Positions 1-37,661 of a stretch of 64,000 bases of DNA are shown here, one piece after another. The notes beneath the pieces are model-generated. The model ran no database searches. It was not told the origin of the DNA and saw only the letters and a program-made list of their open reading frames with translations. The stretch's first letter is position 1; every line of letters starts with the position of its first letter. Source of the stretch: Raillietiella orientalis (taxonomy: Eukaryota); NCBI GenBank assembly GCA_036172245.1, contig JAYWIR010000012.1:4030001-4094000 (forward strand), read 5' to 3'. The translations under genes were made by a program, and so were the position numbers.

Positions 1-271
1 CGGACGCTCATCTCGCCGGAGCGAATCCCCCTCGGGTCCCCGGAAAGCGAAAGGGCCTCTCCGCCCCGAGCCCCGCGAAGACGGGAGAGGGCTGATGTTG
101 GAGGCGGCGCCGTTGGGCATGCAGCAGAAGGGAGGGGAGCAATGAACATGCTTTGTGTTGGGGGTGGCGTGGAAAGCCGCGGCACGAAAGGGCCGGAGGT
201 TGCCGTCTGCCGGTCTCCAGGCAACAGCAGGGAGTGCGAGAGACCGCGCGCCTCTTTTCTGCATTTTTTTT

Positions 272-1948
272 TTATTTTGCTTCGGTGGGCGGTTGGCCGG
301 GTTGGTTGGCGCCTCGCGTTTTCCTAAGCACGGCGAGCCTCGCCCTGTAGGACCGGATGGTGTCCCTGAGGTAGCGCAGCTCGTCCAGGTCGCCGAACCA
401 CGTACCGGGAACGTACGTTACGCACCCCCGCAGGGGTCCCAGTATTTTCCTGCCGATGTTGACTCCGGTCCTGAGCACGAGGAGGCTCTCCAGCACCTTC
501 ATGAGCTCCTCCTCCCCGAGGTTGACCATCGCCATCACCTTCCGCTGCCTGGACAGGTGGCGCATGTCGACCTTGAGCGTCTTCAGCGCTTCGATGGGGA
601 ATTCGATGCAGACCTTGAGGTCCGCCTCGCACGCGCAGAAGACGTACGGGCACTCGGTGACCACCACGTTGGCGCCGCCCTTCAGCCTGTGGGCGGCGAT
701 CAGATTGGTCAGATGGAACTTCAGCCTACTCCGGTACGCCTTGTTCGCGTCGGTGCACAGCATCAGCAGCTCCTCCTTCCGGACGCTCATGGCCCGCATC
801 CGGTTCAGCTTCTCGTCGATAAAGAAGAACTTGCCCATCTGGAGGCCCTTGGTCTGCCGGACGACGCCCTCCGTGTCCAGGATGCAGATCTCGGTTTTGG
901 GATTGAGGAACCTTCCCCTCTTCACCATCCTCTTCAAGGGCAGGAATTGCGCCACCGTCATCCCCAGAGACTTGGGCAGCCCGACCGAGCCCTTGGTCTC
1001 GTCCTCCTCTACCTTCATCTTCTTGACCGGTGGGTCATCCCCGTTGCCGCCATTCTCCGCTGCATTCTCCTCCTCGAGGATGTCCTCGTCCAGGAGGTCC
1101 TCGCAGTTCGACGTGTCCTCCTCCGACGTCCCTATCTCGGTCAGGGAATTTGGGTGGTTCACCGGGATGCCCTCCCTCTTGATTCGACTCTTCTTGCGCG
1201 GATCCCGGCGGCTGCTCTCTCGATACTCGTCGCAGCCCTCTTCGTCCTCCGACTCTGTCTCCGGGCCCGCCACCATGGGCATCATCGCCATCAGGCTCTC
1301 CGCCTCCTCCGCCTCCTCGTCGACCACGAACCTCTCCAGGAACCTGCAGGCCTCCAGGGCACTCGTGTACTCCGTGAGCTCCAGGACGCAGTTGCTGATC
1401 TTCCGCAGCCCGGGGCTGTTCACCGGCCTGTCGTCGTCCACCGCCTTGGTGACCTCCAGCGCAAACGACGCCCTGGCAAACAGCCGCAGCAGCAGCGGTA
1501 GCTTGGCGTCCTCCACGAAGCTCAGGAACGCCACGCTCAGACCGTTGGAGAGCCGGTCCAGAGTGTCTGGGGTGGGTTCGGGTCCACGCTTGAGACCCAT
1601 CCTCAGCTCGTGCAAACGGACGCACTCGGTCCACCGAGGCGTCCTCCGGTCCTCGTTCGCAGCGGCCTTCAGCTCCACGAAGGGCGCGTAGTACGCCTGG
1701 TGGAAGGAGGGCGTCCCCGTGAACTGCTCCCGCTCCTCCGCCTCCTCCGAATGGGAGGAGGAGGTCGAGGGAAGGGCCAGGCGCCGCTCCACACCGCCAG
1801 CGCCGCTTCCGGAGGTGCCTGCCGTTTTCTCCCTCGGGGTGGCGCTCGCGCTCGAAACCCCTCGCCAGACGCCCACGCCAGCAGCACCACCGTCAGCCGG
1901 AAGCGCCCCGGACCACGTCAGCGAGCTCGCACGATTGAGACGGCGCAT
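272..1948 (-). CDS. Intronless protein of unknown family, paralog A (558 aa from ATG 1948), with acidic low-complexity linker
   Basis: Part of ORF 272..2275. GC3-rich codons. Colinear similarity to ORF 4587..6347 (TPSFHQAYYAPF/TPAFQDAYYAPF; MMPMVAGPETESE/MMPVIAGPETESE; LKFHLTNLIAAHRL/LKFKLTNLIATHRL; identical TWFGDLDELRYLRDTIRSYR). AATAAA overlaps the stop. The start codon is uncertain. Confidence 0.8.
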   Translation of the reverse strand: MRRLNRASSLTWSGALPADGGAAGVGVWRGVSSASATPREKTAGTSGSGAGGVERRLALPSTSSSHSEEAEEREQFTGTPSFHQAYYAPFVELKAAANEDRRTPRWTECVRLHELRMGLKRGPEPTPDTLDRLSNGLSVAFLSFVEDAKLPLLLRLFARASFALEVTKAVDDDRPVNSPGLRKISNCVLELTEYTSALEACRFLERFVVDEEAEEAESLMAMMPMVAGPETESEDEEGCDEYRESSRRDPRKKSRIKREGIPVNHPNSLTEIGTSEEDTSNCEDLLDEDILEEENAAENGGNGDDPPVKKMKVEEDETKGSVGLPKSLGMTVAQFLPLKRMVKRGRFLNPKTEICILDTEGVVRQTKGLQMGKFFFIDEKLNRMRAMSVRKEELLMLCTDANKAYRSRLKFHLTNLIAAHRLKGGANVVVTECPYVFCACEADLKVCIEFPIEALKTLKVDMRHLSRQRKVMAMVNLGEEELMKVLESLLVLRTGVNIGRKILGPLRGCVTYVPGTWFGDLDELRYLRDTIRSYRARLAVLRKTRGANQPGQPPTEAK

Positions 1949-1970
1949 CCTCGCGCGGATCCTTAAATAC
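1934..1970 (-). promoter_or_regulatory. Candidate core promoter of paralog A (TATTTAA followed about 30 nt later by TCAAT)
   Basis: Minus strand reads GTATTTAAGGATCCGCGCGAGGATGCGCCGTCTCAATC. It is a rare AT-rich word in a very GC-rich arm. Confidence 0.45.
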
Positions 1971-2549
1971 GTGCCCCTCCCGCGCTGCGGCGCTCGCGCA
2001 CCCCTCCCGGTGGTGTGCCGCTTCGCTTCCGAATTCGCCCTGCGGGCGGAAGGGCACGGGATGCTCCCTCGCGTGGACCGCCTCGCACACACCCCTCCCT
2101 CTCCTCCCCCCTTCTCTCGGCGGCGTCTCCGGCCTCTTCCCTCCCCGGGGGCTGGCGTTCCCCCGTCGGAAAGCGTGCCGCCTCGGCTGGGCGCCCGCGG
2201 GTTCTTTGCCAGGCGCGTCCTCGCCCGTCCCGGCACGCGCCTTCGCTCCCCCACGTGGTCCATCCGGCGCGGCACGACCTGGCAGCGCTGGTCGCGGGCG
2301 CCACGCGCCTGCCCCTCCTCTCACCCTGCCTCCCTCCCCTCTCTCTCTGCGGCACTAGGGCGGCTCTCCGAGCCATCGGGAGGCGCGGATCCCCCCTCCT
2401 CTTACCATCTAGCGAAAGCGGGGCGAAGGACAGCAGACGGTCGACCGCCGCCGGCAGAGGAGACTTCGGTTCGCCAACGCGCGCCTGGCGAGGCGGGCGG
2501 GCGGGTGCTGCGAGAGACGCGGGTTGTCCGAGAGGAGCGTCCGAGGAGG
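1941..2549. repeat. Left arm of 609-bp inverted repeat
   Basis: Reverse complement of 3952-4560 (paired coordinates sum to 6501). ORF-track translations across both arms are identical in several frames (e.g. 1963..2376- equals 4125..4538+). Confidence 0.95.
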
Positions 2550-2829
2550 GGAGCTGCTGCTGGTCGGGTTTCGTGCGAGGTGCACCCCAACAGCACCACT
2601 CGGCGCAGAGATTCCGATGGTTGTGCAGGAGCTCCGACCCTTCGAGCTGATTTCATCCAGGGAGGACCCAGGCTATCCCTTTGGTCTTTCCAGTGCGCCG
2701 TCGGACAGCCGCTTTCTTCCTCGACTAGCCCGAACAATTCATCTGCGCACACTTCTCTTCGGAACTGCAAATCTCCAGGAGCTTTCAGACGTTTAGCATG
2801 TTGAAAGAAATGGAGGAGCAGAGCGACTT

Positions 2830-3780
2830 TTTTGGGGTGCTCAACATCACCATCCTCCTCCCCTTTTTCCTCCTCCTCATATTCCTCCCTTCTCCTCCTC
2901 CTCCCTTCCTCCACTTCTGACTTCTTTTGCCTAATCCTCCCTTCCCCTTTCCTCCTCCTTTCTCCCTTCTTCCTTTTCTCTTCCTTATCCTCCTCTTCTT
3001 TTCCTCCTCCTTCTTGCTTCCCTCTTCCTCTTCCTCCCACTATGTTTAGGCTTTTCTTCCCCCTCTCCTTCCCGAACAAGCTGCTTCCGGGCCTTCTTTC
3101 CTGCTCTAACCTCATCCTCAATCTCCAGCGGGATGTCTCCGCGCTCCTTCGTTGGATGCTGCCGTACTCCGTTACTCCTCCCGGTCTGTTGCCATCGGGA
3201 GCTCGCCCGGTGGCGTCACGGCTCCAGACTGTCTGCCCCTCGTCCCCCTCACATAGAGTGCCGAATCGCTCCGAGACTGCGCGAATCTGGGGCCAGGTTT
3301 CTCTTTCCCTCCGCCATCCAAGGGAGCGGAAAGTGCAGCGGGGTGCATCAGAGTGCCGATCCCGCCTTCCGTGCATCCCTTCGGTCCACCATTGCATCTT
3401 CTTCCTCCTGGGAACACTCAGAAGGGACGAAAGGTGGATGCCGCAGGCTGCTAAGCACCGCAGGACCTCCACCTCCTCCTTCACCTCTCTCCTTCCCTAT
3501 CCTTTCTTCCCGCTCCCTCCTCCACCCTCCTGTCCCTCCGACCCTCCCACGACTCCTCCTTGCCCTTTTTCTTACCCTATATCCCTGTTGCTCTTCCATC
3601 CCCTCTCCTTTTCTCACCCTTCGATCATCCCTTCCTCCGCCTCGACCTATTTCCTTCCTGGCCGAAGAAGACCTGCAGGTGCGCATCCACTGCCCTCTCT
3701 GGTCGCATCCTTGCCCGCCCATTCCGAGGAGGAAGAGGGAAACACCCTCCTACCTTTCTCCTCCCCCTTCCTTGAGCATT
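2830..3780 (+). repeat. Polypyrimidine (CT-rich) low-complexity tracts in the inverted-repeat spacer
   Basis: Runs of ctt/cct/tcc at about 2830-3110, 3470-3660 and 3740-3775. Confidence 0.85.
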
Positions 3781-3951
3781 GAGGAGGAAATGCGTTCCGG
3801 ATTGCCGTCCCCTGCTTCCGGGAGACCCTTGCGCGGCGCAGCGGAAGCAGCCGGAAACAACGGGTGCCTCGGCTTCGGCCAAACCACTCCAGCGCGGCAC
3901 TCTTGTGAGCTACGAGAGGGACCGACGAGCCACTGCTTCGCCTCTCCCCCT

Positions 3952-4560
3952 CCTCCTCGGACGCTCCTCTCGGACAACCCGCGTCTCTCGCAGCACCCGC
4001 CCGCCCGCCTCGCCAGGCGCGCGTTGGCGAACCGAAGTCTCCTCTGCCGGCGGCGGTCGACCGTCTGCTGTCCTTCGCCCCGCTTTCGCTAGATGGTAAG
4101 AGGAGGGGGGATCCGCGCCTCCCGATGGCTCGGAGAGCCGCCCTAGTGCCGCAGAGAGAGAGGGGAGGGAGGCAGGGTGAGAGGAGGGGCAGGCGCGTGG
4201 CGCCCGCGACCAGCGCTGCCAGGTCGTGCCGCGCCGGATGGACCACGTGGGGGAGCGAAGGCGCGTGCCGGGACGGGCGAGGACGCGCCTGGCAAAGAAC
4301 CCGCGGGCGCCCAGCCGAGGCGGCACGCTTTCCGACGGGGGAACGCCAGCCCCCGGGGAGGGAAGAGGCCGGAGACGCCGCCGAGAGAAGGGGGGAGGAG
4401 AGGGAGGGGTGTGTGCGAGGCGGTCCACGCGAGGGAGCATCCCGTGCCCTTCCGCCCGCAGGGCGAATTCGGAAGCGAAGCGGCACACCACCGGGAGGGG
4501 TGCGCGAGCGCCGCAGCGCGGGAGGGGCACGTATTTAAGGATCCGCGCGAGGATGCGCCG
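3952..4560. repeat. Right arm of 609-bp inverted repeat
   Basis: Reverse complement of 1941-2549; the first mismatches are at 3951 and 4561. Confidence 0.95.
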
Positions 4561-4567
4561 CCTCAGT
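4531..4567 (+). promoter_or_regulatory. Candidate core promoter of paralog B (TATTTAA plus TCAGT initiator)
   Basis: GTATTTAA at 4531-4538 and TCAGT at 4563-4567. The spacing is typical of TATA-Inr promoters. Confidence 0.5.
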
Positions 4568-4586
4568 AGCGCAAATTGGCGGCTGC

Positions 4587-6347
4587 GTGCTGCGTGGCAG
4601 GACGGAGGAAGTGCCAGCGGCGAGTGGGACTTCCGAGGTGTCGATCCGCACCGGTCAGCTGGAGGGGGAACGAGAGCCGCGGGCGTCAACGTCGGCGCTG
4701 GGGGATGACGGTCAGGAGGACGAGGACGACGACGACCTTGAGGACGAGGACGAGGACGACCTTGAGGACGAGGATGAGGATGCGGCGGTCCCGGAGCTCG
4801 TCCTGGATCGTACCATCCCCCCGCCGTTCCCCCGCGAATCCATCCCCATGGATGAGGAGACACGGGAGTGGGAGCAGTACCTGGCCACTCCCGCCTTCCA
4901 GGACGCGTACTATGCCCCCTTCGAGACCCTGAGGAGCGCCGACACGGAGTCTTGCCGGATGCCCAAGTGGATGGACTGCATGGATGTGGACGAGGTGCGG
5001 ATGTGCCAGGAGGTGGCCGGTCCGTCGACCTCCCAATCGACGACGCAGTCGCCCACCAGCGCCGACGCCGAGGGCGCCGATCTCACCACCGCCCTGACCG
5101 ACGCGTTCGCCGCGTACCACCAGAGCAGAGGCGAGGCGCAGCTGTCCGTCCTGAAGAAGCTGTACGCGCGCGCTATGTTCGCGGCAGACATGGTGCGGAT
5201 GCTGAATGATGGCGGGCCGCCACACGCGCAGGCCTTCGAGAGACTCCGTCGGTCCATCTTCAGTCGCAGCGAGTACAGCTCCGAGCTGGAGATGTGCAAG
5301 TACCTGGATCAGTTCGTTCTGGACGAAGAAAAGGACGGCATCGGCACGTTCCTGGCGATGATGCCGGTGATTGCCGGCCCTGAGACGGAGTCGGAGGAGG
5401 AGAGCGTGCCGGGCCCGTTCAGCGGCAGCCTAATCAACGACTACAAGGAGAGCAGCCGCCGCAACCCGCGCAAGAAGAGCAGGATCGTGAGGGACGTGAT
5501 CCCGGTGAACGACCCGACGTACGTGAGCGACTCCCCGTCCGAGGAGGATGAAGAGGAAGGGGATGAGGGGGAGGCCTCGCCGTCCTACGCGTCCCTGGAC
5601 GAAAGCGCCCCTCCCTCGCCCCTGAGGAAGTCGAAGCTTGAGGGCAACCCCCGGGATAACTTCACGGTGCCAAAGATCCTGGGGATGACGGTGACGGAGT
5701 TCCTGCAGGCGAAGAGGAAGATCGAGCGGGGCAAGATGATAGTCCCCCGGGTGGAGGTGTGCGTATTTGACCTGCACGGGGTCATCCGGACCCTAGCGGG
5801 CGTAAAGGCCGTCGGCAGGATGCTGTTCATCGACGACAGGCTGGAGCGGCAAAAGCCGCTGAGCTTCGTCAAGGAGGAGCTGCTGACGCTGTGCTCTGAC
5901 GAGACGAGGATCTACCGCAGCAAGCTTAAGTTCAAGCTGACCAACTTGATCGCCACCCACAGGCTGAGAGGCGGCGTCAACGTGGTCATCACCGAGTACC
6001 CTTACGTCTTTTGCTGCATCGAAGCCAAGGTGAAGCTGTGCATCGACTGCCCCGAAGAGATCTTGGACTCCATGAAGACGGACATGTTCCATCTCTCCAG
6101 CCAGAGGAAGATGCTACTCGTGCGAGACCTCCAAGTGGAAGAGGTGGCCAAGGTGCTCGAGCTGATTCTCACTCAGAGGACCGGGGTCAAGCTGGGCAGG
6201 AAGATCAGGACGTCCGACTCCAGCATGGTGTACCTGCCCAGCACGTGGTTCGGGGACCTGGACGAGCTGCGCTACCTCAGGGACACCATCCGGTCCTACA
6301 GGGGGAGGCTGAAGGTTCTGAAGAAGAAGAGGCAGAAGAAGCAGTGA
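4587..6347 (+). CDS. Intronless protein of unknown family, paralog B (first in-frame ATG at 4848 gives 499 aa)
   Basis: Long open frame with strong GC3 bias, D/E-rich N-terminal repeats and a basic C-terminus (KKKRQKKQ). Colinear homology to 272..1948(-). AAAATAAAAA at about 6501-6516. Confidence 0.85.
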   Translation: MLRGRTEEVPAASGTSEVSIRTGQLEGEREPRASTSALGDDGQEDEDDDDLEDEDEDDLEDEDEDAAVPELVLDRTIPPPFPRESIPMDEETREWEQYLATPAFQDAYYAPFETLRSADTESCRMPKWMDCMDVDEVRMCQEVAGPSTSQSTTQSPTSADAEGADLTTALTDAFAAYHQSRGEAQLSVLKKLYARAMFAADMVRMLNDGGPPHAQAFERLRRSIFSRSEYSSELEMCKYLDQFVLDEEKDGIGTFLAMMPVIAGPETESEEESVPGPFSGSLINDYKESSRRNPRKKSRIVRDVIPVNDPTYVSDSPSEEDEEEGDEGEASPSYASLDESAPPSPLRKSKLEGNPRDNFTVPKILGMTVTEFLQAKRKIERGKMIVPRVEVCVFDLHGVIRTLAGVKAVGRMLFIDDRLERQKPLSFVKEELLTLCSDETRIYRSKLKFKLTNLIATHRLRGGVNVVITEYPYVFCCIEAKVKLCIDCPEEILDSMKTDMFHLSSQRKMLLVRDLQVEEVAKVLELILTQRTGVKLGRKIRTSDSSMVYLPSTWFGDLDELRYLRDTIRSYRGRLKVLKKKRQKKQ

Positions 6348-7056
6348 GAGACGCGCACTGGGATGGCGGGGCCACCCCATCTGCTGCCGAAACGACCAGG
6401 AGAGACGGTACTCGGCGGTATACATGTTATTCGGGAGCACTTGGAAGAAGATCCCATCCCTCCCTTGACACCACAGCGCGGCAGGCCGCGAACCTGGCCC
6501 AAAATAAAAAAAAAAACTCGGCAGAGGAGGAAGGGAGGAGGAGGAAGGGAAGAAGAGGAGGAAGGAAGGAAGTTGGCTCCGCCTGTCCTTTCGTGTCCCG
6601 GCGCTCAAGAAACTCACACGTTTAGGATGACGCTGTTCTCATAAGACGTGCTCGCTGCCTCCCTTCCTTCTGCATGCCCGGTGCGACACCGACCCTTCCG
6701 TCCTCGCAGGCTTTCCTGTGTCCCTTCGGACCGCGGGAGCGACTTCGCGTCCCGTGGAGGGAGGGAATGCCGCCGCCTCTACCCGGAGGTACTGAGTGGA
6801 ATGCCCGCGGGAGCTCGGGGCAGGACGCCCTTTCACGTTCCAGGGTCCAAGGGGTCCGCTTCGGGACTTCAAGATGGGCAGTTTCCCGCGTTGGCAGTAG
6901 CTCCCGGTTCCAACCCGGGAAGGGGGAGGGCGCTTTGTTGGCTCTCATATGCCGCGGATGGCGGAAATGTTCCCTGTCCCATTGTCCTCCTTTCCCCCCC
7001 TTGGAATTCGAAGCGTCCATTCCACGCTGCCACCTCGGGCTATGCAGGCGACGGGG

Positions 7057-7955: not shown

Positions 7956-10127
7956 ATGGCTCGGGATTTCTGCGTTCCGAAATTCGAACCAAACCCCCGT
8001 TTCATAGACCTTGGGCAGCGTCATCACAGGGAAACCATCCTCGCCTCACTAACGGATCGCGACTAACATCACCAGTCTCACAGCATCCAACATCACCAGT
8101 CTCACAGCATCTGAGCTGGTGCACACAGAAAAGCGTGTGCGGCGATACCCTGGCGAGATCAGACGATGCAGAGTCTTCGCAGCATCCACCCGCAGTCCAG
8201 CCAGAATTCGGCCGGGGAGGACCTAGAAGTCCGGGGGGCACTTCGAGCTAACGAAGAGTTCGGACGCGAAGATCTCTCGTTACCGAAAAATTCCGGGCAT
8301 TCTCCGCTCCTTCGACGAGGGAGACGCCAGCACGTAGCGAAGCAATTGCCGGCAACCATTAGCCCGTTCGGGGACGTGCCATCCCTACAGTAACGAGCGG
8401 CGTTCGTTTCTTCCCTTCTTCGCTTCCTGGAGGCTCCGGCTCTGCCACCGCACCTGCACTGGCTGGTCCATTTTGGTAACGAGAGGAAAGCGGATGAGTT
8501 TCTCGAAAATTGCGAACTGTCGAATCGCTCGCTGTTGAGCCTCGTGACCGTTTCCTTGTCACCCGCATGTCCGGAAAGAGAGAAGCCATAAAAGGCACGA
8601 TGTGAAATTTGCAATCGAGGCTTCCATCATGTAGCCAATCTCCTATGTCACAGAGTTAGGACTCATTCAGTTCTTACTGAAGATTCTGAAAATGCCAAGT
8701 ATGATTCGGGTGTCCAACTCAACAGATGGAGAATTGACTGCATATCAATGCAATCTTTGCAACAAAGCTTTCAGAACTTCTGTCCAATTACATCTTCATA
8801 TTGAAAGCACACATGTTATGAAAGTTGTAATCACAAAGCAGAAATCATTAACCCCAAACAATAAGGTTCCTAGAGAGCTACATGCTTCTGCTAATGCAGG
8901 GAAGATGAGCGTATCGTCTTCAGATAGCACCCTTAGATCCCAAATAGATAGAATTTTGAAATCTATTCATAAGGGAATGCAGCAGAGAAGCTTACCACAA
9001 GCAGTGTGTTCATCTTATCTCAACACCTTTACTAAAAATTCTGTCTCCAAATCTGTGCTTAATACTTCAAAAAGAACAAAATCCAAGGTCCCTGTTCCCA
9101 AACTGACTCGAATATGTAATAGTGAAGGGGAACAAGAGAATGAGAAGACAAAGGTCCAAACTGATGTGCTTGTGCTAGATCCAATCAACACAAAAGCAAT
9201 GGAATGGTCACGACAGAACAATCAGTTGGCGTTTGCTCTTTTCAAACCTATGAAAGGAGTACCTGTTCTAGTCAAGATTCTTGATACTCTAAATAATAAA
9301 CAGGTTCTGTGTCCTGCGACTGCAGAAGATTTGAAAGAATTTGGCAAGATATTTGTACCAGAGGATTCAGATGCTTGCAAGCTGACGCAAAATGTTCAAA
9401 TGAAAGTTCCTGTTGTAGCAAGTATCACACAAACTGTTGCTGAAGATGGTTATTACTGTGGAACCTGTTACTAGTGAAACAGAGGACAGCTACCTAGATC
9501 AAGATTTTCAGATGTCCCCTGTAGAGGATTCATCGCTGGAGCTATTTAATAATCAATATTCTGATGCTATATCGGAAACAGGAAGCAACCTGTTGTTGGA
9601 ATCAAATCATCGTGAACTTCCCATAGAATTGTTAGCTCCGATGACACCCAATTCGGAAAATCTGATTTCGGACACCACTCTGGAAAATTCTCAGCCCATG
9701 CAATATTATCGTGAAGATGAGAGCTCCATGCTTAATGAGATCCCATCAGTGAAGCACATGAATCTGATGGTTGTATCAAATCAGCAAGATGATGATATAA
9801 TTAGCTCAGATGACCCGAGGATGGAGATCGATTCTTTCGATCAGCAGAGCGTGCACCTATTTTGCCAGCGAGCGGATGGGTCTCGGAATAATCGGAACGG
9901 AGAAGCAGCAGCTGAGTCAGATCTCCGACGCACGAACTGTTCATCCGGGAAGCAAGTGGAACGGTTGCTCACAGTTGATATTCAACGATGACCCCGAGCA
10001 GCTTTTCATCAGAGATTCTTCAGAGCCGATGCACATGTTGATGGTGCAGCGGCTTCAGGAGCACGAGAGCAAAGAAGTCGAATACATCGTGCAGGCTGGC
10101 GAGGACGTGTCGTCGTTAGGGAATTGA
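7956..10127 (+). pseudogene. C2H2 zinc-finger gene with multiple frameshifts (pseudogene or assembly errors)
   Basis: CEICNRGFHHVANLLCHRVRTH at 8601-8666 and CNLCNKAFRTSVQLHLHIESTH in ORF 8692..9474 lie in different frames. The gene continues through overlapping ORFs 9437..9991 and 9810..10127. ATG 7956 follows a TTTTTAG acceptor-like site. Confidence 0.7.
8065..8111 (+). repeat. Tandem duplication, 2 x 23 bp (period 24)
   Basis: AACATCACCAGTCTCACAGCATC at 8065-8087 and 8089-8111. Confidence 0.9.
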
Positions 10128-16059: not shown

Positions 16060-19000
16060 TAATAGCTACAAAAACACACCACCGAAGACATATCTGTCCT
16101 ACTGCCGTTTCGGCACGAAGCGGAGCAACAGAACCAGCTAACGAGACAGGAAAGCAATACCAGCACTTCTCGTTTTCCAAGTAGGTGGATATGCAAAAAA
16201 ACTAAACAGTGGGAAGATAGGATAGGCACAAATTGTTCATCCATACTTGAACGCCGGGATCTAACGGGAGAAAGGAGACTTTGAAGTGCTGCAGCTGGTA
16301 GTTTCCTCTTTCCTGGTGCCTTCTCAGACTTCAAACTTTGCCGGCTGCCGCCGCAAACTTGGGCTCTTGCTGCACTCATACGGATTTTCTCCTAGTTCAT
16401 CGGCGGAAAAGCGTGACATCACAAGGACAGAAAATTCGCGCACATGAACTGTGTTTGAAACACTTTCTGGAAACAATTCCAGGAAAGCGGCCAGGACGCC
16501 TGTCACACATAACACGTGCCACCAATCCCTGAACGGTGCACTTCTTCCGGCAGCACACATCGTACCTGCACACCCATCCTGAATTTCAATTACGCTTCAA
16601 ACTCTGAGGAAAAGGGAAATGCAGAACAGAACAAAACGCAAACGGACTAAGAAAATTCAAGGGCTAAAAAGAGAACAAACAGCACACCGTGTGCTTTTGC
16701 TAGCACTCCAAGTCCAGCTTTTACAAACAATAACACCAAAACAAACAAACAAAAAATGCAAACAACAAAAGGGGGAAACCTACCGACATCTTCCTCTGAA
16801 TCCCCGAAACGCCGTTTGTCCAGCTCTGAAGGTACAAAAACGAAGAGGGTTATTTACTGCTATACAAATGAATTTCATTCCAATTGGCAGCTATTTTGAT
16901 TTTTGTAAGTCTTTCCCATGAGCAGGCGGTCAAATGGGCAAAACAGTGGTGGCAAAAAAAAAAAAAAAAACCACTAAAATACAACAAACACTGTTTGATA
17001 GATGTTTTATTATAATTGTCTCCATGTTTTCATTTGCACTTTTTGAATCCATATAAGCATAATCATGCAGAAACGATTCACAAATGCAAAAGTTCATAGA
17101 CAAAACACTACATGGAAAACATAGGAACATGCCCATCTATTGGCTTTTCTTTCTTGCTACCAGGCATTATAACAGTACGATCATTAACTTTTACCGGCAC
17201 TGAAACATTCCTAATGAGTCATCAACCTTTTTGAAACAGTTGGTTGTTTTCAACTTGCCTGTGCTAAGATCAGAATATGCTTGTCAAGTTTCCGCTATTT
17301 TTTGGTTCCAAGATAGGGTACTGCGTTAGAACATTCCTTTCCATGTATTTTAATGCAGGCACAAATTTTCACTTGTTCATTCTCATCACATGACATTTTT
17401 TACTACTGTCTACTTTTTTCCAACACTGCTTTTTTCAGAGAATTCTTTTGGCCTCCTTTAGTGCCCCACGCATTACTAGTACGAGGCCAAAAAGACTTTA
17501 GAGTTCCAAAAATCTTAAGCAAATCGGGAGGAGCAACTGGACCAAATAAATCCGAGGCACTAATGGGTAACTGCTTAATGAACTGTTCATAAATCTGCGG
17601 TCTTTTTGCCCACAGAGGGGTTTGTTTCTTCCTTTTTCTATTATCTGAATCACATTCATCGTCATGAAGCAAAGTCATCTCATAAGAGCTGACATCCATA
17701 GAACTGGTGGGAAGTGCCTGAATGCATACAAAAAATTACAAGTTTGCAAATATAAAAACTTCACAGCTAGAAAATCAACATTTTCACTTTCATTTGCATT
17801 CCCGAACCCTTTGAGTCCCAAACATACTTTTGATGTGGATGGCACAATTTCACCCTTGTATTTATCAAGCACACCAACTTCCTTCAAATGATAATCTGCT
17901 TTGTTTTTCTTAGATGCCTGTTTGGCAACAAACATTGCCTTGCATGGTTGCTTAGGCTAAGAGAATTTTGTTATAAATGCTCCCTCTTACAATGCTACCT
18001 GTATCTCTTGTTTTGGTGTTTTTGACACAACACCTTCAGAATGCTCTTGGTTGGTTTTCACCAATTGTTCCTGATGCAGCAGTTTGCTCTGCATTTCGTC
18101 TTTGAGATTATGATTTACTTGTACTTCAGCTATTGGAGTCAGAGGATTTGGTTTTGATTTTATTGCTGTTTTTTTGTTTTCACTGTCTATACAGTAGGTC
18201 CGTCTTTTGTCCATAGAAGAATCTACTGTGTTAGAACATGTTTTGTGTATTTCCTTTGCTGAGCGAACTAATTTGGTTTGAACTTTTGGCTTCTTCTGAT
18301 CAGCTTGCTTGTGCATTTTGCTTGGAATAATCTCCTTGTTCCTAGGTCTATTCCGGGGAGCTTGGTAAGGTCGTGAGTGGTCTGACTGCTGCAAACCAGG
18401 TTTTTGGGCCTAAAGATGGTAACTGACAATGATTCAAAATCTTTGTCGAAAATCATTACCAGTTTGTTAGTTTTGGGATTAGACCTTAGCTGTGCGCTAG
18501 GAATCATTTCATGCAGCTCTAGAAAATTCCAAAGAAGCAGCACAATATTAATTAATACACTCACTGGTAGCTTGGTGCATCAATGTTTTTTTCCGAGTAC
18601 CATATAATCTGGCAGATTTTAAGGAAGGTTTCCTTTTGAAGGCACGAGAAAGCTTTCTGTTGCTTTTACACTTCACTGAATCCCTAGGGAAATTGGGTAG
18701 TGCTTCCTGTTCTTGAGCGGAAGATCTGCCAGAAGAGTTAATCTGTGAAAGTGCCTTGCTGAAATGTACATACAAGAAAAATTTAAAGAGCTCAACGTCC
18801 ACTCTCACTCTTACTCCATATTTTCCACTTGAATTCTTTCTAATAAAACTGAACATTCTCGAGTGCATACTGTGGCTGGGATAACATTATCACTTTTTAA
18901 TTTGGCAATTTCAGCAAGTGATTCATCACTAGTCTTATCTTTTTTGAGTTCAGCATACTTGATTTCTGATCCGGAGGTTTTTAATTCATGTGTGACACGG

Positions 19001-22000
19001 GAGGGTTTAACTGAATTGCTACTAAAAAGAGCAGCTTCCGATTGTCTTTCCATTACATTCTCTGAAATTTTTCGAAGCTCACATCTTCTTAAAGAAACAG
19101 TTACAGTTTTTTTGAAGACCACATCATCTGATTTCTCGCAGGGAAACACACCTAAACTCACGTCACTACTTCCTGGAACATTTGAATGTTCAGGCTGAAA
19201 GTGGAATGAAGGGCAGTGAGTAGACTCCTTGTTCTCTATGCAAGAAACAGCCACTGTATAAGATTCTGCAGATCCAGAAATATGTGATGATAATCGTGTA
19301 TGCATTTTCGGAGCTTCATTTGTCGATGGTAACTTTTCGTCTGTAAGTACTCCACCACTGGAAGAAGTACTTTTGTTGGACTTCAGTTGCTTTGCAGCAT
19401 TTTTCCTCCTGTTGACTGAATAGTTGACTTCTCCTTTACTGTTCCTGCGAAGTTTATTACTTTCCATCATTTCACAATTTTCCGTTATTTTTTTCCTAGC
19501 TTTCTATGTGGAGCAAACATAAAAATCTCAATCTTCTTGATGCACTAAAAATGCAGTTATTACCATGGCTGCTTTACGGAAACAGCGATGATCCATCGTA
19601 GTAGCCTGCCCAGGCTGTGAATCAAGATTATTTTCATAATTTTGTGCCACTGAAGACTCAACAAGTATGGGATCTAAATAACATATCATAATTAACAACA
19701 TTATCCTTTATCAAGGATCCAAGTTGAATTATCAACAAATCCTCACTGTTGACAGATTCATTGGAGGGGGCTTCCAAATCACAAGGTACTATCTTTGATA
19801 TTCTCTTTCTTCTGGCTGGAGTCTTACAATGAAATATGCCTGAACTACAATTACTTCTGATCTTTTCTGCCTTATCTTCAAATAACTCATTTAACTGCTG
19901 CTGATTTTTCTAAAAAAACAAGCATCAAGTTGTGTGCAGCTACAATGAAAAACATACTTCTAAGTCTTCATGTAAAGTTACAAATCTTTTCATTACAGCT
20001 TCTTCTGTAAACTGGGTCAAGTTTTCCATATCTGCAATCAAATACACATTAACAGGTATGTTACACTTTTATTTGCACTATTCACAATAATAACTGGATA
20101 TAATTCGCACAATTAACACTTAATCTGAAATGCAGAAGTCATTTCTGAAATAACATACTACAATAGTCCCTTGTAATTCATGCCTGAATCCCATTTTAAA
20201 AATGTTATAAATACAACTGGATTCAGTTATCTTGAATATGCTCTGAGACATGAAATTCATTTATAGTTTCCATAGTGTTACTACTTGTGATTGGGTAATT
20301 TTCTATAATAAAATTAAGAACTTGACAAACTGAAAAATTGTATCCTTGATTTATCTTACATCAATCTAGAGAACACCACACACTGAGTTGATTTTCCACT
20401 TTCTGAAATTAATTTGATACCATGCTTTTCAATTGGGATTTCTGCATTGAACTTGGTAAACTTAAATCATACAAATGCAGTTCTCAAAATTGTTTTCTAT
20501 CGATTTTTTTATTTAGCTATCTTGTCATTTCCGTTCTTTACTGAACAAAAGCACTTGGATGGATGCAGAACGAGAAACTTCCACAAAAATTTCACAACAA
20601 TGTGGATAATACAATACATGGTATTCAGAACTCCAGCTCCTTTATAGAATGCAGATATTTAATGACTCTGACTAATGGCTTACATTTAAGATACATCTGA
20701 GTTTTCGGCCTCTTTCATATTCTCTAACGCTCCTCCAAGAATTTAGATCCACTTCTACCAAATATGATACATCCGAAGGTTCCAAGGTGCTATTTCAATC
20801 TTAAAATCGGATTTTCGGGGAGAGAAAAAAAAGAATTAGCAAAATCCAATCCTCTTGTTGAAATCACACTGATGATCCCTCATGGCTGTTTAAATGACTG
20901 AATAGGCAAACATCAAATCTGCGATGTCACTGAAAATAATCAGTTTTATATGATGCTGAAATTTTTTCAGGATGCTACATCTGAATCAGGAGTCATTTTT
21001 TTGTAGATTCCCTTTTTATTTTGTTGGTTGCATTATACAGGAATTCTTATCGATTTTCTATAGAGTTACATTCAGAAGTCTCACAATTTGTCTGCAGAAA
21101 TATAGCTGTTAATTGAACTAATTGTAAGTTTTGTGAAAATACTTGTTTATTCCCACAATGCTCATTGAAGGCCTTTTTTGTCAACAGCTGCCTTGATATT
21201 TCACAATCTAATTGTGCCCAATTCAGGGAGCCTGATGCTGATCTATTCATCAAGTTGATGAGATTCTCTTTATGTATTACTGGATCCATAGGACATTTTC
21301 TGCCCTAGCTCAATTCATCAGAAAGAAAATTATTAGTGATTTTGACTATGCTGATTCAACCTAAATATAATCATAAAAATAAGCAGTCCCTCAACAAATT
21401 TGGAATAGTTTCAAATTTTGTTTAATTCTACTTGGATGATTTATCATGTTCATCAAATGAAGTAATGATGGGGAACCAAGTATGGATCCCTCCGGAAAAT
21501 TCTTTTTATGTGATATATTTCACAAAGATGGGTGTAATGTTATTAAAATAGCTGAAAAATTATGAAGCTGTTGCAAAAACTATAAAACACTTTAATTCTT
21601 TTAAAGTTTTTTGATACAGTTTACATGAAAACATTTTAATTGAATGCCACACAAAAATATAAATCAAGGCAGCAGTTCAGGCATCTAAAAAACAGGACAT
21701 TTTCAATTTATTTGATTTTAAAGAATTCGAACTTTTTCTGATGTACATAATAAGCAATCTTTCCAACTTTATTGTGTACACCTGCCTGCAGCATGAACGT
21801 TTGTGCTGATATATTGTAAACATGATTGATCATTACTTTATGAAAATTTAGCGATAGCAAATGCTATACTAGTTCAACATTCATTGAGGTCTACAAGACT
21901 TTATCACATTAAAACACTCCATGCCACTTAATAAATCAGAAAGGAAAGTCCAGTCAGTTTTGGTGCTAACAGTTGCATGTACATCATTAATTCTTATACA

Positions 22001-22601
22001 GCCAGCAATTCATCATTAACTTCAGGATCTGTAAAACACACACACACACACACACGCACAAAGAAAACTATTCCTGAAATTGGTAACATTGGACAAATGT
22101 CAAAACATTTTTAATTTACAAATCTATAAGATAATTTTGAAATTCACATAGAGTTCCCATTTATTGAAAACACATGGCAAGAAAATCACCACCACATATC
22201 ACATGATGAAATAAAAATAATCCAAGTACAACCGGTACAAGAACGTACTTTGACCTTGTGTACAACTTCTGCTGCCCAGAGAATCGAAACAATAATCATT
22301 ACTGCATTACAGTATACGTATTCCATTTATTAGACATATCGATAATTTTCAAACAGTTATCCGGAAAGACAGAGTTACGAGTAAACTTTGTTATCATGCA
22401 CGTGACTGAAAATGCATCTTGCAAGCTGACGGACTACACTGTTTTGTGTATATTTTTCCCCTACACGCTACTTCAAGTTACAAATTTTCAAAAACTTCAA
22501 AGAAAACTGCACAAAGAGTAACCAACTAAACGCTAAAATGACTTGAAAATCTCTAGGATTTACGGCACTACACATCCTTTTCTGTTTAAAACACCCGCCA
22601 T
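16060..22601 (-). pseudogene. Long multi-exon gene of unknown product (S/K-rich large exon), disrupted by frameshifts and stops
   Basis: Chain of overlapping minus ORFs (18811..19470, 18548..18868, 18268..18564, 17987..18394, 17675..17935, 17403..17699). Small exons with canonical sites, e.g. 19958-20031 (DMENLTQFTEEAVMKRFVTLHEDLE) followed by a 48-nt GTATGT..TTTTAG intron (19910-19957). Candidate ATG at 22601. Ends are approximate. Confidence 0.55.
22036..22059. repeat. (CA)n microsatellite
   Basis: acacacacacacacacacacgcac. Confidence 0.9.
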
Positions 22602-23499
22602 GTTCAGCATTCGCAAGAGGCCGCTACACTTTTGATTCCGGAACTCTTGGGCTTCTTACGTGAAAAAGAAAACCAATGGATTGCTAGTTATACAGTTGTG
22701 CTTGGTACATTTGCCAAGTGTACTCGAACCAAACTATCCAAAATGTACGAAAGGCACGCAACCATCTTATAAGCACCGGGTCAAAAGGCAACGCGCTACA
22801 ATGCTGAAAGTCTAAAATACCTGCTGTCGTACTTCTATCGAACTCTATCGAATCATTTTTCCACTATGCCAGCTGGTGAGCCGCGTTTCGCTCGCACGAG
22901 CGAATGACAGTGTACAGTACAATCAGGTGAAATGATGCACCGTGGGAACACGAACGCTCAAAGCACGCACAAGTGATTCACAAGGTCTCATTACCATGCG
23001 CATCAACCCGCTCTTCAGCACCAACATGGTACACAGACATGGTCAACCCTTGGAGTCACATGGTGGTGACACGAGTAGGAAGCCGAACAAAGGACGCGTA
23101 GTGAACTGCTACCGTATTCACGACGAATCCCCCCAACCCCGGCGCGCGTGTTTACTGGAGATGTTCACTTGGCAGCGCTCAGGGCACGGTTACGTGTGGC
23201 GTAACGATGGAAACGATCCTTTCGGGATTCCGTGCACGGAACGGGAGATCCGTCTACAGCAGCATCCTTGCTGCTGCCACTCCTTGCCGGATGCAGACGG
23301 GAGCCCGCGTCTCCAAGGTAGCTCCTCGCGGTAGGTGGTTCGCTTTCAACGGGTTGCCTGCAGACACCGGCGGACTCGTTGCCAAGATGAAGAGGGCACT
23401 CCGAAATGCATTTCATTTCCCATGGCCTCGAGAATTTCTTGCTTACCGATGACCTTTACTCAGATGGAGCACACACATCCCCTCCCTCCCCCATCCCCC

Positions 23500-24350
23500 A
23501 ATTCAATTAACCAAGTAAATGTCTCTTTCGCTTCGGAACCATATGCTTTAGACATTTTTTTTTTGCAACGGTCACCTTCACCAACAGCTATATGTATTCA
23601 CGGAACCATCAGAATCAAAAGTGGACTCAGTGAAGTGGTCGAAGCTTTTATTTTTCAGCCATCAAAACTTATTTGGTGGATCATGTACCGAAAAGGGACC
23701 TGCAGAATGAACAGCACTACAACGGAAGCGGTTCAGAACTGCACCGCAACATCACTCCACGTCGAAATCCTCACCTCTGCCGTTTTAAAAACTCACTACA
23801 AATTGCTATGGTCAAAGGCTACGGGCCATTTACGCAATTCTTATGGTTTCGATTATCCGGGCGAAAATCGCAAGTAGTATTCGGGGATGTGATTAAAGAA
23901 ATCCAGAATTCCAACTCTCAGCACTTCAGATAGGAAAGTTTCATAGTTTCATGGAGCAGACTCAAACACAGTTCCAGTAAACAAAAGCTTAAATACGTCT
24001 CCTTTTACTTTCAAAAAGAGTTTGGTATCCTCTTGAAAAAACGAACAATGACACTGCACATATTTTGAAAGCTTTGCTTTTCAAAAACCGAAAAAATCCT
24101 AATAAAACCCATCTGAGTTCAATTTTTCAAATTGAAGCTGTCATGGATTCCAATACTTTCGATGGCACGCAGGCGACAGGAGTCAAAGAGCTTGAGAAAT
24201 TCCCACTGATCTGAGGATGTCGTTGATGCTTTTGAGCACTTTCGATTCTTTTCGTTCCGTGCACATATATATCACTAGTGGCAAAGGCAGTCGTTGCAGA
24301 AAAGGTCCAAGGCATGTGGTCCCGAAGTAAAAGCAACCAGTGAAAACATG
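23500..24350 (-). mobile_element. Decayed LINE reverse transcriptase fragment
   Basis: SLTPVACVPSKVLESM resembles the RPISLTxVxxKxLE RT motif. A downstream LITSPILLAIF resembles the LSPLLF motif. Confidence 0.4.
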
Positions 24351-25439
24351 TGGAACCTTGGTCTATGATCCTAGGATGCCTTTCATAGTCTCTGGAGCGT
24401 GAAACAAACTAAACATCTCAAAACGAAATTGATAGAATGCAAGACTCTGCAAAAACATCTCTTTACCTTTTATTTTGTCGTTTCCATCACCATTTTCCCG
24501 TGCTAACGATTTCACTGGCCACCATTGGAGTTGTTTCTATAATCTGATATTTCTACAAATTCTGAAATTAGCTAATAACCCTCTATTACACTTCAGTATA
24601 ACGAATTCTAGCGTTCCACTCGTGTATGGGCATTACTATCTTTGTCCATCAGTTGTTAAGCCGGCTTGTTTTCACCACTTCTTCAGATGTAGAGCTCTGT
24701 GGATGAACATCTTCCAGAAACGTTTGGATTCTGAGCCAGAACTCGAAGGCACTGCCAAGACCGCTTGGATCTGTTCGATAGAAAGTCGTTTTCCAGTAGT
24801 GGCTGGCTCTGTAAAAAGAAAAGTTTTGAACGAACCTTATGGAACCTCTCTACCAACAGCAGTGACCTTTTGCCTCTCCAGAGGGCAGGTACTCCATGGA
24901 GGAGCTTGGAAAGAAAACGAAACCTGGGCATCCATGCCTTTGAAAGATTCAATCTACGATCAATTTTTTGTCCTTTTCTATTTCATCCTAGTCTGATGGG
25001 AGATCCGGGAACATTCGGATTGCATGAAGAAGTCCAAGGAAGTGGAGGAGGGATTTTTTCCGCAGTTTCCACCATTTCCTCCACCTGTTCTGTTTCGCCT
25101 TAGTTATTAATGTCGTCACAGAGGGACGTCTATTCCAATTAAATAAAGAAACATTAACAAACCTTGGGACTACCACTCAGGGACCAATAGCACGCAAGTC
25201 GATGGTAGGAGAAAAAACGCATACATAAAAGGAGGTGTTTTTATTTATTTATTTATTTAAAGACCAGTTGCGACCTCACGGGGAGATTTTACTATTGGCC
25301 TAGGATGATTATCGCCCGCTCATGACGAGCATTTGTTATATAAAAAACTAAAAAATAGATTTGTGTTTATACCCGGAGTCCCGCTGTTGGACTTGTGCGG
25401 TCCGTGTTGGGAAGGCGGCCTCGGCCTCCTGACGCTTGA

Positions 25440-26950
25440 GAGGATGGAGATTCAGCTGCGATGGCGAACCATGGCCATTGCAGCGAAGTTATGGAGCATC
25501 CCCTGAGGCGTTCCTACGCTCATCTTTCCATATCCGTGTATTCACAATGGAAGGGCTCGCGTCGTACCTTCTGTGCCCCGGCCGGAAGGTGAGAAGATGC
25601 GGTGTCCTCCTTGGACTCACAGCCACTCTGGTGAAGGAGAACGGCTGGATGGTCTGCTGCCCGCCAACTCTAGCGCATGGCTAGAAAACACACCTGACCC
25701 GCGGGCGAAGATTAATGAGCCGCAATGTGAGACATGGAACTGCCTGCAACTTGGCAACTACGTCCGCTGGTCGCTGTGGAAGATACTGGAGTGTCCCAGC
25801 AGGAGCATGTGAGCGAAGACGACCTCCCTCGCTAAGGTGATACGCTTCCTGAGGAGGGTACTCGGCAGTATTTCCAGACGCAGAGGTGGCAAGTCTCCTG
25901 AGAGATCGCCGGTAGAGAGAAGATGTAGAGTGGATGCACCATGGGACAACTGGCGGACGTTGCGATCTCAGGTGCCCTTCCACGAGGATTACAGCGCTAG
26001 GGAGAGCTGCTCAGCATTTCATCTGAAGACCTGGAGTGGTCAAGGATATCAAGGATATCCTTGACCACTGCTCAAGGATATCAGCACCCTCCCCCTGAAG
26101 TGGCAGGAATCGGCAGGTGCGGGATAGACTCCATCGACCCGCACCTGACACAGCTCGGAGCTGCGACCCCTCCCAACATTCGATGCCGTCGCTCGTTACA
26201 CTGGAATCTTCAGTGGGGGAACAACGAACCGTCCACACAATGGTGCAGGACCACAAGTTCTTCACGGGCAACACTCAAAGTTCTACCCATCGAAGGAGTC
26301 CCTTTGCCAAAGCACGCGGAGTAGCAGCATCCGCCAGCTCGCCCGTCTTCCAGCAGCCGAGTCTAGTTTTTACCGCAATAGTGCAGGAAAACTCACACCT
26401 CGCCGGTAGGCTGTTGTCATCTCTTGCCCTGAGGGAAGACAGAGCTGCGGCGAGGAGTGCGGCGGTCAGGATCCACCAATTCACCTCGTCCTGTATCACC
26501 ACTTTCGGAGGTTGTGGTAACAGATTTCGCAGAGGATGATCTTCAGGGCTCATTCCCTGGAATGCAATCCAGGGCTCAACAGCATCCTGCTGCCAAACAC
26601 TGAAGTTCGTCGGGCGACAGGAGGTCCACGGATGGGCTTCCACTAGTGAGGCGAGTTGCCTCAGGGGGAAGCCGAATCCCCGCATCCTGTAGTGATTGCC
26701 CGGCAGCAGCGAGAGCAGTCCTTCGCTGCGGGCGCATATCCGTAGGATGATGCGTGCAGGCGAACACATCGGGGTAGGCCACAGCTTGGCACAGAGTGCC
26801 AGCATTCGCAACTGCACTTGCAGCCCTATTCACTCCAGCGTCTGGATGCCTAAGCTGGCGTCCTGGCGCCGGTAGCCGTTGAAGTCTCCAGCTATCAGGT
26901 GCGCTCTCCGCACGCCTGCTCTCCGCATCTCCTCCTTCTTGCAGCATCAA
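25440..26950 (-). mobile_element. Decayed APE-type LINE ORF2 fragment
   Basis: LIAGDFN at about 26878-26898 (APE endonuclease motif), then EDH (SDH-like) and a GVDG-like motif near 26135. Confidence 0.5.
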
Positions 26951-27349
26951 TCAACGGGAAATTCCCTTCCCCTGCTCTTAATTTTCGACTGTCGCTGCAT
27001 TCCTAGGAGACTTTCTCGCTCTGAGGTCAAAGGAAGCGACCTGGGTACAGAAGGAGGAATGCAGAAAAGAGAAATCAGAAAAACAAGAACTCCATCTCTG
27101 CAGAAAATGGCAGCAGGTACAACATGTCTACAAGACAAACAGAGGCGAGCCCCTGTCCCAGAAGCAGCCAGCGGGAACTCTCTAGAATGTGCTTAGACGG
27201 ACTCTCACCAGGATAAAGAACGGACTCTATTAACTAGTCAACGTGTTTTTCAATCTGAGCTGAGAGAAGGACAGACTCTGACACATGGAAAGTCCTTGCA
27301 ATCACGTTAGAAAACTATCAACAGAAGAGAAACCACGAAATCCCTGCTT

Positions 27350-28120
27350 TCCTCACGAGGGGATGAGCATGTTCGATGGCCAAGGTGAACATGGATACCT
27401 TTGACGATGTGGGCAATATTCGCGAAAGAGATGCACTCTTCCGAGAGCAAATTCCCGGAAGGAAAGAGAGAGCGTGAAATTGAAAGGATGAGTTGTATTT
27501 GTTTGTTGAAACGCACCATCCCTCTGCTCCTGGAAAAAGTATAGGAAGCAGAGAAGGAAGACCAGGTCCATCAAGGAGTATTCATTCTGTTAATGGAGTG
27601 GCCTTTTGATGCACCAAGCAAACACAGCAGCTGATGAAACACTGCAAGGGAACATAGTCAACGCTGGAAAAGAAGAAGAATTTTTGTTTTGGATCCTAGA
27701 GACAGTTTCTGGGAAACAGAGAAGGATGGCAGTACCTGGTGGAGCCTACCCGGACGCTGAAGCAGAATCCGACGTGGAGTTAGAAACCGGGAATCATCCA
27801 AAGGAGAAAGGAGGTGTGGATACAAGAAGTAGCGCGAGTACGTTTGCATTTGATACAGTTTCCACCATTGACGACTGCCGAATCGTTCCTGAATGGAATG
27901 CAGCGATTCGGGAGACCTGGCACCGGGAATATCCACACACCAGGAGATTCCCTACGGAAGAGCAGAGGAGATCCAGGAAAGATGGTTGGACAAAAATAAA
28001 GAGTCGATGCAGGACAAGTGAGAGCAAGGAATCGGAAAAATACCCTTTCTTCCGTTGCGTCTTCCACTCTCACCCACATTGCCAATTTCTCGTGAATAAG
28101 GTAAACACCTTTTATGGGAA
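27350..28120 (-). mobile_element. Decayed L1-like endonuclease/RT fragment
   Basis: RRNGRKGIF..SHLSCIDSLFLSNHL resembles the L1 endonuclease WR..NP..YT..SRIDYFL region. Confidence 0.35.
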
Positions 28121-29713
28121 ATAAAACAAACCGGATGTGTGTTCCTAGGAAAGGAATAAAGAGGAAAAAAAAGAGCATTTCTGCTTTCAAATCTTTGCGT
28201 GAGATGGAATCCTTTAGACAAAATGCAATGCCTCGTCTGGATGAGTAGCAGTTCCAGTACCATTGTAAGCTGCTGTTGCATGTTATAACCTTTTGAACGA
28301 GTTCAGTATCATTTTGTGGGCTGTAACGCATTCCAGGAACTTTCTGTGAGCATTCAAACAGGGAAACGGAGGCTTTTGTAACCCGCAGTTATTACGGACA
28401 TCAATTCATTATTTGTAGCACTGGAAATCGGTGGGCACTGGAAATCGGCGATTGCGGCGCGCGGCGGCAGCGTACGAACTGCGGGTCCGACTTTCACTTT
28501 TGCAAACCCAAAAAGTGGTATGTAATCAGGAAAAGTTTCCATTTCTTTTTCGCAAAGACGAGAAACATTCCTCGCAATGCCTCGAAAAATGGGGAAAGAA
28601 ACGAATTTACCAAGTAAGAACGAAAGTGAAACGTCTTGCAGAATTCTTCCATTTGAAAAATTGATCATTCCTCAAAAGTTTGTTGAGAATCAACCTTTAG
28701 TTTTGTGGAATTCCGATAGGTTTGACAGTTTTCGGTTTTGCATGGCTGCTTTGAGTAACGTGAATGCTTTGCTTCTTTGATGATCTGAAGCAGCTGTGCA
28801 TGGGATGCTATGTTTGTGTGGCCATGGTGTGTGCAAGTCTTTGACACACTTCTGAATGCAGCCAACGAATCGACGAGTTTGTTGTCAGGACCTTTACAGC
28901 CCAGATTTCGAAATTACTGCGTACATTCGTCACAGACTGTTCTCATTCCTGTTTCCTGTGCTGTCGTTTTATCCGTGTTTCTTATGTATTTTTGAGAATG
29001 TGCTCTATAATGTTAGATAATTATCATTGTAGATGATGTTTAACGAGTAGGTAAGTTGGACAAAGTCCATCGGCATTGGAATAATTTATGAGTAATTGGT
29101 ATGTGTATTACATTTAGTGCTTCAACATAGACAGTAATTGAATTTGCTATCTTTCAACAGTAGTTCCTTCCACATACAGGGGCTGTACTTTTTCCAGCTG
29201 CAGCTTTCAGTGTGTATTATGTATTTAAGTGGATGTACGTATTGTTTTATTTGTGGTGATTTTAGTTAAGCAATGTTTTCTGTGCTTAATTTCATCCATG
29301 GAAATTATGGGTTTCTTCATGTCCTGCATTGTGTTTGTTTCTTAACCCATTCAGAAAGTACCAGCAACATTTCCTTTCACTGCGCATGCCATTCTTGTGT
29401 TACTACTCCAGGAGTACCTTGCATTTCTTTCTTTCTTTTAGTGAAGAGGATCTTCATATTTTATTTCATTGCCCTGGCAAAAAAGACACCAATCAGATTG
29501 ACACGTTTAGTATTGCCAGCTTGTCAGCTTCAGAACATTTAGAAGATTTGAACATGGAAACTGCTAATCAATCACATCATTCTTTCTTTTGCTGCAAACC
29601 AGTAGTTTCAAAGACGAGCTGTTGTCTGTTGTGATTGTTTTGTATTGCAGTCGTTTTGTGTATCCCAGGTTTTCTTTTGCATACTATGTTTTTGGTATCC
29701 TCATATTGGAAGC

Positions 29714-37187: not shown

Positions 37188-37661
37188 TCAATCGTAGCAT
37201 CCGGCATTTCTCCTGCGGGATTCCCGGGAGGGTTGCGTGAAGTCCTTCCGGCTGCGAGCGACGCCGCGCCCCCCTCTGCCACTCTTCTTCCCGAACCGCA
37301 TCATCCCGTAGTCGTCAAAGTAGCGCTTCCCGAAGCGCAGCAGTCCGTAGTCGTCGAAATCCATGTGGGGGTTGCCCGACGTTGACGGGTTTCCTGGGGA
37401 CTTGATGCCCTGGCGCCTTTCGATCGTCCCTTGCACGGACTGCGGGGATCCCCCGGTGGATGGAGGGGAGGAAGCGTCCCGCGCCGGCTTGGCTCCCGGG
37501 ATGGCAACCGCCAGCTCCTTGAGGAACGCGGAATAGGGGACGACCACGATCCCGTTCCCGCCTTCCTTCTTCTGGATGATCATTTGGTGGCTGCTTCCGA
37601 CGACGCACAGCAGGGCGAGTAACGTCGGGAGGACGCGCGTCTGTTCGTAGCCGTCAGCCAT
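37188..37661 (-). CDS. Sulfakinin-like (CCK/gastrin family) neuropeptide precursor, 157 aa
   Basis: ATG 37661 directly follows CTTTCAG-GA. Hydrophobic signal-like segment (VLPTLLALLCVVGSS). Two tandem peptides, DFDDYGLLRF-G-KR and YFDDYGMMRF-G-KK, with amidation Gly and dibasic sites, matching the sulfakinin FDDYGHMRFamide pattern. Confidence 0.88.
   Translation of the reverse strand: MADGYEQTRVLPTLLALLCVVGSSHQMIIQKKEGGNGIVVVPYSAFLKELAVAIPGAKPARDASSPPSTGGSPQSVQGTIERRQGIKSPGNPSTSGNPHMDFDDYGLLRFGKRYFDDYGMMRFGKKSGRGGRGVARSRKDFTQPSRESRRRNAGCYD

Follow-up and report, generated by a model that had tools for sequence, protein, structure and literature searches.

Organisation of the locus

We analysed a stretch of 64,000 nucleotides (nt) from the genome of Raillietiella orientalis (contig JAYWIR010000012.1, positions 4,030,001 to 4,094,000 of the forward strand), referred to here as the window, whose own numbering is used throughout. 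Near its left end, two homologous open reading frames (ORFs) face outward from a central region in which two inverted arms enclose a spacer:

272..1948, minus strand: left paralog, an ORF of 558 codons that starts at the ATG in the arm; the stop codon overlaps AATAAA at 271-276
1941..2549, minus strand: left arm, 609 bp, 73% GC, with a TATA-like word at 1963-1969, donor-like words at 2405 and 2324, and the first 8 coding bases
2550..3951, no strand: unique spacer, 1402 bp, 58% GC, pyrimidine-rich on the plus strand
3952..4560, plus strand: right arm, exact reverse complement of the left arm
4539..6347, plus strand: long frame of the right paralog, open from 4539, first ATG at 4848; AATAAA at 6503-6508

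A preliminary description of this locus, made from the letters and a list of ORFs, had reported that the two outward-facing ORFs are homologous and differ at about half of their positions, that the 609-bp arms are exact reverse complements, and that identity stops abruptly at the 1402-bp spacer. Exact alignment bore out all three points. The ORFs ending at 272 (minus strand) and 6347 (plus strand) are paralogs that share 215 of 502 residues (43%, E = 1e-136), with indels; a base-by-base comparison of 1941-2549 with 3952-4560 yielded 0 mismatches in 609 positions; and beyond the inner arm boundary identity drops to 25-40% in bins of 20 nt. The outer boundary had likewise been called abrupt and placed at the TATA/initiator region. 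Exact identity runs past the TATA-like word, ending 29 nt from the first base of that word and 8 nt into the frame of an ATG shared by both arms, with an initiator-like TCA directly outside both arms. The edge then fades, with 60% identity over the next 20 nt followed by 30-50%. A repeat finder drew the arms at 1929-2549 and 3952-4572 (621 nt, 99% complementary, 1402 nt apart), all 4 mismatches falling within the outer 12 nt.

The arms and one further tract of 49 bp are the only exact inverted matches of at least 22 nt in the window, and the match between the arms is far above chance. Inverted similarity runs on ungapped past the outer arm ends into both genes, and the arms are in register with the older duplication. 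They might alternatively represent a young transposon inserted twice, or the long terminal repeats of a foldback-type element composed of arm, spacer and arm, and decayed retroelements are numerous in the window. We consider such an origin extremely improbable, as the arm occurs in just two copies in the 64 kb, has neither terminal repeats nor a target-site duplication beyond chance 4-mers, and belongs to an inverted similarity that continues outside the supposed unit into the genes.

Divergence of the paralogs and a second exact tract

The coding regions differ from the arms in their degree of divergence. Across 468 aligned codons the two genes are 62% identical at the DNA level, 36 of 98 four-fold sites differ, and the proportions of synonymous and nonsynonymous differences (pS and pN) are 0.51 and 0.33, respectively. 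The same codon is used at 145 of the 214 identical degenerate residues (0.68), compared with 0.57 expected at full saturation under the present codon bias. By these measures the coding regions are close to saturation at silent sites, whereas the divergence of the arms is at most 0.5% at 95% confidence. We read this as an old duplication in which both long frames have been kept open through indels and the arms have been made identical recently.

A second exact inverted match, of 49 nt, is located near both 3′ ends:

343..391, minus strand: exact 49-bp tract, left copy, candidate second conversion tract
6255..6303, plus strand: exact 49-bp tract, right copy, partner of 343..391

The runner-up among exact runs in the coding alignment measures 16 nt. 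The tract covers 16 whole codons with identical silent sites, three different Arg codons and two Leu codons being kept. Conditional on matching residues, all 16 codons would agree by chance with a probability of 0.0013 at that site and, gene-wide, of 0.044 or 0.069 under two nulls. A column shuffle that disregards protein conservation returned 0 in 20,000 for the tract, which overstates the case. We regard the 49-bp tract as suggestive, though not decisive, of a second conversion.

The shared ATG and the starts of the two genes

Two further features of the right arm concern the beginning of the genes:

4532..4538, plus strand: TATA-like word TATTTAA, the only one in the arm, 21 nt before the shared ATG
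4553..4708, plus strand: frame of 51 codons that the shared ATG starts in the right copy, distinct from the long frame

Two splice-donor-like words lie deeper in the arm (2405 and 2324 in the left one). The distance from TATTTAA to the ATG is too short for the normal order of TATA box, start and ATG, so that TATTTAA would be either a TATA box with the ATG lying before the transcript start or, equally, part of a 3′ splice acceptor. To judge from the sequence, the arm may serve as a promoter, and both ORFs appear to be intronless.

The shared ATG opens the entire left frame of 558 codons, on which side no other ATG occurs before 1600, which lies downstream of a conserved block; the left frame is also open further up, to another ATG at 2263 (663 codons). 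In the right copy the same ATG opens just 51 codons, in a frame other than the long one. The right long frame has 499 codons from its first ATG and a coding look from about 4670, with the segment 4716-4847 being coding-like (GC content at third codon positions, GC3, of 0.84) and carrying an acidic tandem repeat. The open 5′ extensions are not clearly above chance (p = 0.07 and 0.085), and a codon-usage scan gave no consistent coding signal in the arms.

Because the shared ATG is in frame on the left and out of frame on the right, the identical arms cannot feed both frames alike. When the right-hand frame was compared with the left N-terminus, both candidate frames were marginal (48 and 31 of 1000 shuffles), and in a read-through test of the right-hand frames the score came from the conserved core. 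The offset is not located at the arm edge, beyond which ungapped similarity extends. No stable RNA structure was found after the stop of the 51-codon frame (z = +1.33), so that programmed frameshifting is unsupported. The anomaly of the right frame could stem from a base error or a recent lesion, or else from splicing or a start other than AUG. The first of these would also suit an assembly or polishing artefact, in which two similar but non-identical arms were merged into a single consensus or the assembler wrote one arm twice. We think this quite unlikely, given that both arms join diverged paralogs in register, which an artefact would hardly create, and that polishing merges only arms that are already very alike, in which case the main finding would stand. 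Moreover, 609 bp would be short relative to long reads, if such reads underlie the assembly.

Probable gene conversion in an old duplication

The locus contains a sharply bounded, near-identical tract within an older, more diverged duplication, which is a pattern expected of mosaic gene conversion between adjacent inverted paralogs. We consider it probable that the locus is an old head-to-head duplication whose 5′ non-coding DNA has been homogenised by gene conversion from arm to arm. In this scenario, (i) an old inverted duplication of an orphan gene would have left two copies 1.4 kb apart and able to pair; (ii) a break in one arm would have been repaired off the other, which would have erased all differences in 5′ non-coding DNA and start codon; (iii) the coding regions would by now be too diverged for conversion, or their differences would be held by selection, so that identity would stop a few bases into the reading frame; (iv) a small conserved patch near the 3′ end would be the only other region copied; and (v) both genes would likely come under the same proximal regulation, while a crossover between the arms could also flip the spacer, a side product of little effect. 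The GC content of the arm (73%), compared with that of the spacer (58%), fits the GC-biased conversion of palindromes described in PMC3723533.

Several observations weigh against this account. High GC is not particular to the arms, since long unduplicated parts of the window reach 60-65%, and the evidence from the 49-bp tract becomes borderline when protein conservation is taken into account. The conversion model also leaves unexplained that the shared ATG and the right long ORF are in different frames. The reverse pattern, with upstream regions diverged while parts of the genes were converted, is described for three mammalian pairs in PMC2720389. Finally, the account is drawn from a single sequence, from which the direction, repetition and age of the conversion can only be presumed. 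The preliminary description had also read the locus as an old duplication with homogenised arms; the differences at four-fold sites, the near-absence of divergence between the arms and the suggestive second tract agree with that reading. Of the two origins that it offered for the identity of the arms, ongoing conversion or recombination and one recent copy, a single sequence cannot separate one from the other.

Under the latter alternative, a single recent event (a long conversion or a template switch) copied the upstream region and gene start onto the other copy, with no long-term concerted evolution; if it ran from left to right, the start of the right gene may have been disturbed. We hold this to be unlikely. 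It would account for the perfect identity with a sharp inner edge and for an ATG that suits the left gene only, and 609 bp falls inside the tract lengths given in PMC3966223. However, a single copying event would require homology to begin from, which is scarce if the regions involved were as diverged as the coding sequences, the 49-bp tract points to more than one event, and the frame offset lies away from the arm edge, with ungapped similarity continuing beyond it.

The spacer and its possible inversion

The spacer is pyrimidine-rich on the plus strand (purines 0.35) and retains no symmetry except low-complexity matches of at most 19 nt. It holds one TATA-like word, at 3578 on the plus strand only. 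No Pfam match was obtained among the 7 spacer and arm frames scanned, and the spacer showed no gene that could be recognised, of recombinase type or otherwise. It also has no Rfam match, and a tRNA scan likewise found none.

Recombination between the arms had been proposed in the preliminary description to turn the spacer into a switch. Such a switch would need a one-sided enhancer or upstream start in the spacer, so that a flip shifts expression towards one of the paralogs. In its favour, inversion is possible between perfect inverted arms, the spacer is asymmetric between strands and has its single TATA-like word on one of them, and a first exon further upstream could make use of the donor-like words in the arm. 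Since the arms are identical, however, a flip would be nearly silent: each gene would still have the identical 609 bp in front of it, TATA-like word and ATG included, and its presumed proximal promoter would not change. Only direction-dependent elements borne by the spacer could matter; a start site inside the spacer would escape this argument. No recombinase-like gene was seen among the spacer and arm frames scanned, CT-rich tracts resembling those of the spacer are present elsewhere in the window, and in human palindrome P6, according to PMC3723533, 3 inversions stand against 56 conversions in 83 phased chromosomes. We therefore regard a recombination-driven switch as highly improbable. Equally remote is an elaborated version, in which a spacer with a one-sided regulatory element or upstream transcript start, inverting by recombination between arms maintained by conversion, would bias the expression of two diverged regulators of an undescribed, possibly virus-derived family. 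Their identical leader would be read in frame on the left, whereas the right gene would rely on splicing, recoding or a start other than AUG. An animal with a functioning inversion switch would be a far more important finding, if true, and nothing here supports one.

Programmed inversion switches such as Salmonella Hin and the mating-type inversion of methylotrophic yeasts are regulated and move a promoter or a gene into a different context. They resemble the present locus in having a flippable segment between inverted repeats. Here, in contrast, a flip swaps identical arms, and neither a trigger nor a recombinase was seen at the locus.

Comparison with conversion-homogenised gene pairs

The locus probably works like known inverted paralog pairs homogenised by conversion, as far as its sequence organisation indicates. 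The earlier statement that no described system matches it was too strong, since head-to-head paralogs with converted upstream regions have been described, albeit with far less diverged coding regions (PMC5701461, PMC3071340).

In primates, SIGLEC11 and SIGLEC16 lie head to head, and their upstream region and first exons have been converted (PMC5701461). The human pair shows 99.3% versus 93.1% identity with a tract that covers five exons (PMC5701461), compared with 100% versus 62% DNA identity and a tract that ends 8 nt into the frame at the present locus. Dipteran hsp70 genes provide an arthropod parallel, with an inverted pair 1.2 kb apart in one species and, in another, concerted evolution of 5′-flanking blocks that reach 650 bp; unlike here, where they are near saturation, the coding regions of hsp70 are homogenised too (PMC3071340). 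In Caenorhabditis, conversion occurs between adjacent inverted paralogs, with tracts of 12-2958 bp. These cases, among them the hsp16 modules and fog-2/ftr-1, are similar to our locus in presenting a perfect inverted repeat with a short unique spacer and short conversion tracts between diverged neighbours, but the hsp16 repeat spans whole genes (PMC3966223). The same review cautions that a recent duplication can mimic conversion (PMC3966223). Human Y palindrome P6 shares arm-to-arm conversion, GC-rich arms and occasional inversion as a by-product, and differs in its arms of more than 100 kb, a non-recombining chromosome and genes inside the arms (PMC3723533).

Our literature search, which left most subscription papers outside, returned analogues, none of which combines identical upstream DNA with coding DNA near saturation. 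The locus would be an unusually extreme and clean example, with upstream DNA kept identical while the coding regions approach saturation, and could be used to test directly whether old duplicates are held in co-expression by homogenised promoters.

A small protein family

Of wider interest is the small unnamed protein family to which the paralogs belong. Neither protein has a match at usable E-values in Pfam, PHROGs or PDB sequences. A profile search of 1.84 billion representatives gave 2 matches at E ≤ 0.001, P0003 (4e-9) and P0004 (4e-6), both on the C-terminal domain; their sources are a JGI contig of 2.3 kb and a Logan contig of 8.3 kb, and the same clustering yields a longer mate, P0005. 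In pairwise comparisons, these relatives share 23-31% identity with the window proteins. Since P0003 and P0005 also match each other (E = 5e-29), a small real family exists. P0005 starts with a short motif that aligns to a mid-protein motif of both window proteins (window 5304-5340), followed by acidic and basic stretches; the motif hints at homology beyond the C-terminal domain.

Further searches added no relative. A homolog search with the right ORF gave 0 of 8000 scored candidates, a five-row profile gave 1 of 7876, which was already known, and none of 7 scans of viral, metagenome and prokaryote collections with the locus gave a confirmed relative. In the Atlas, the right ORF had no usable match and the matches of P0003 were all below 0.9. 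Two structure models were of low confidence (mean predicted local distance difference test score, pLDDT, 39.4 and 36.2), and fold searches with these poor models yielded no meaningful match (best E 0.14; best Z 4.2 and 6.9). The proteins are thus without assignable family or fold, with only two distant database matches. They are probably nuclear, and their acidic tracts and basic cluster suggest a nuclear regulator.

As to a viral origin, no match was found in viral contigs, PHROGs or BFVD, the last having been searched with a poor model. GC3 is 0.87-0.89 in the paralogs (0.87 in the left ORF) versus 0.29-0.37 in AT-rich neighbours, but a neuropeptide-like host gene in the window reaches 0.75, so the composition of the paralogs is no proof of foreign origin.

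Surroundings in the window

This neuropeptide-like gene (37188-37811, minus strand) is one uninterrupted frame whose product looks like a neuropeptide precursor: it contains two FDDYG-x-x-RFG peptides with dibasic sites behind them, and has Leu or Met where His is usual. We take the peptides to be sulfakinin-like, which points to an ecdysozoan host. The frame had no Pfam match, and a text search of the literature for the two peptide words found none. An intronless ORF of 374 codons at 29714-30838 (plus strand) resembles adenosine deaminase (N6-methyl-AMP deaminase) and shares 39-46% identity with the best 120 of 641 matches, so that the protein collection appears to contain no close relative of this animal. 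At 8635-10127 (plus strand), a C2H2 zinc-finger-like gene extends across three overlapping frames, consistent with short introns, frameshifts or base errors. An AT-rich gene at about 17400-19500 (minus strand) occupies several successive frames, and at least one of the junctions, near 18760-18815, has the look of a short intron that begins with GTAAGA and finishes with TTTCAG. Several decayed, related copies of a non-LTR retroelement lie at 11.2-13.7 kb, 25.3-27.0 kb and 55.8-62.3 kb, with a weak RVT_1 match at 59006-59617. The window is divided into sharp GC compartments, with 60-70% at 1-7000 and 33000-56000 versus 31-45% at 17000-30000, and GC3 of the codons follows them.

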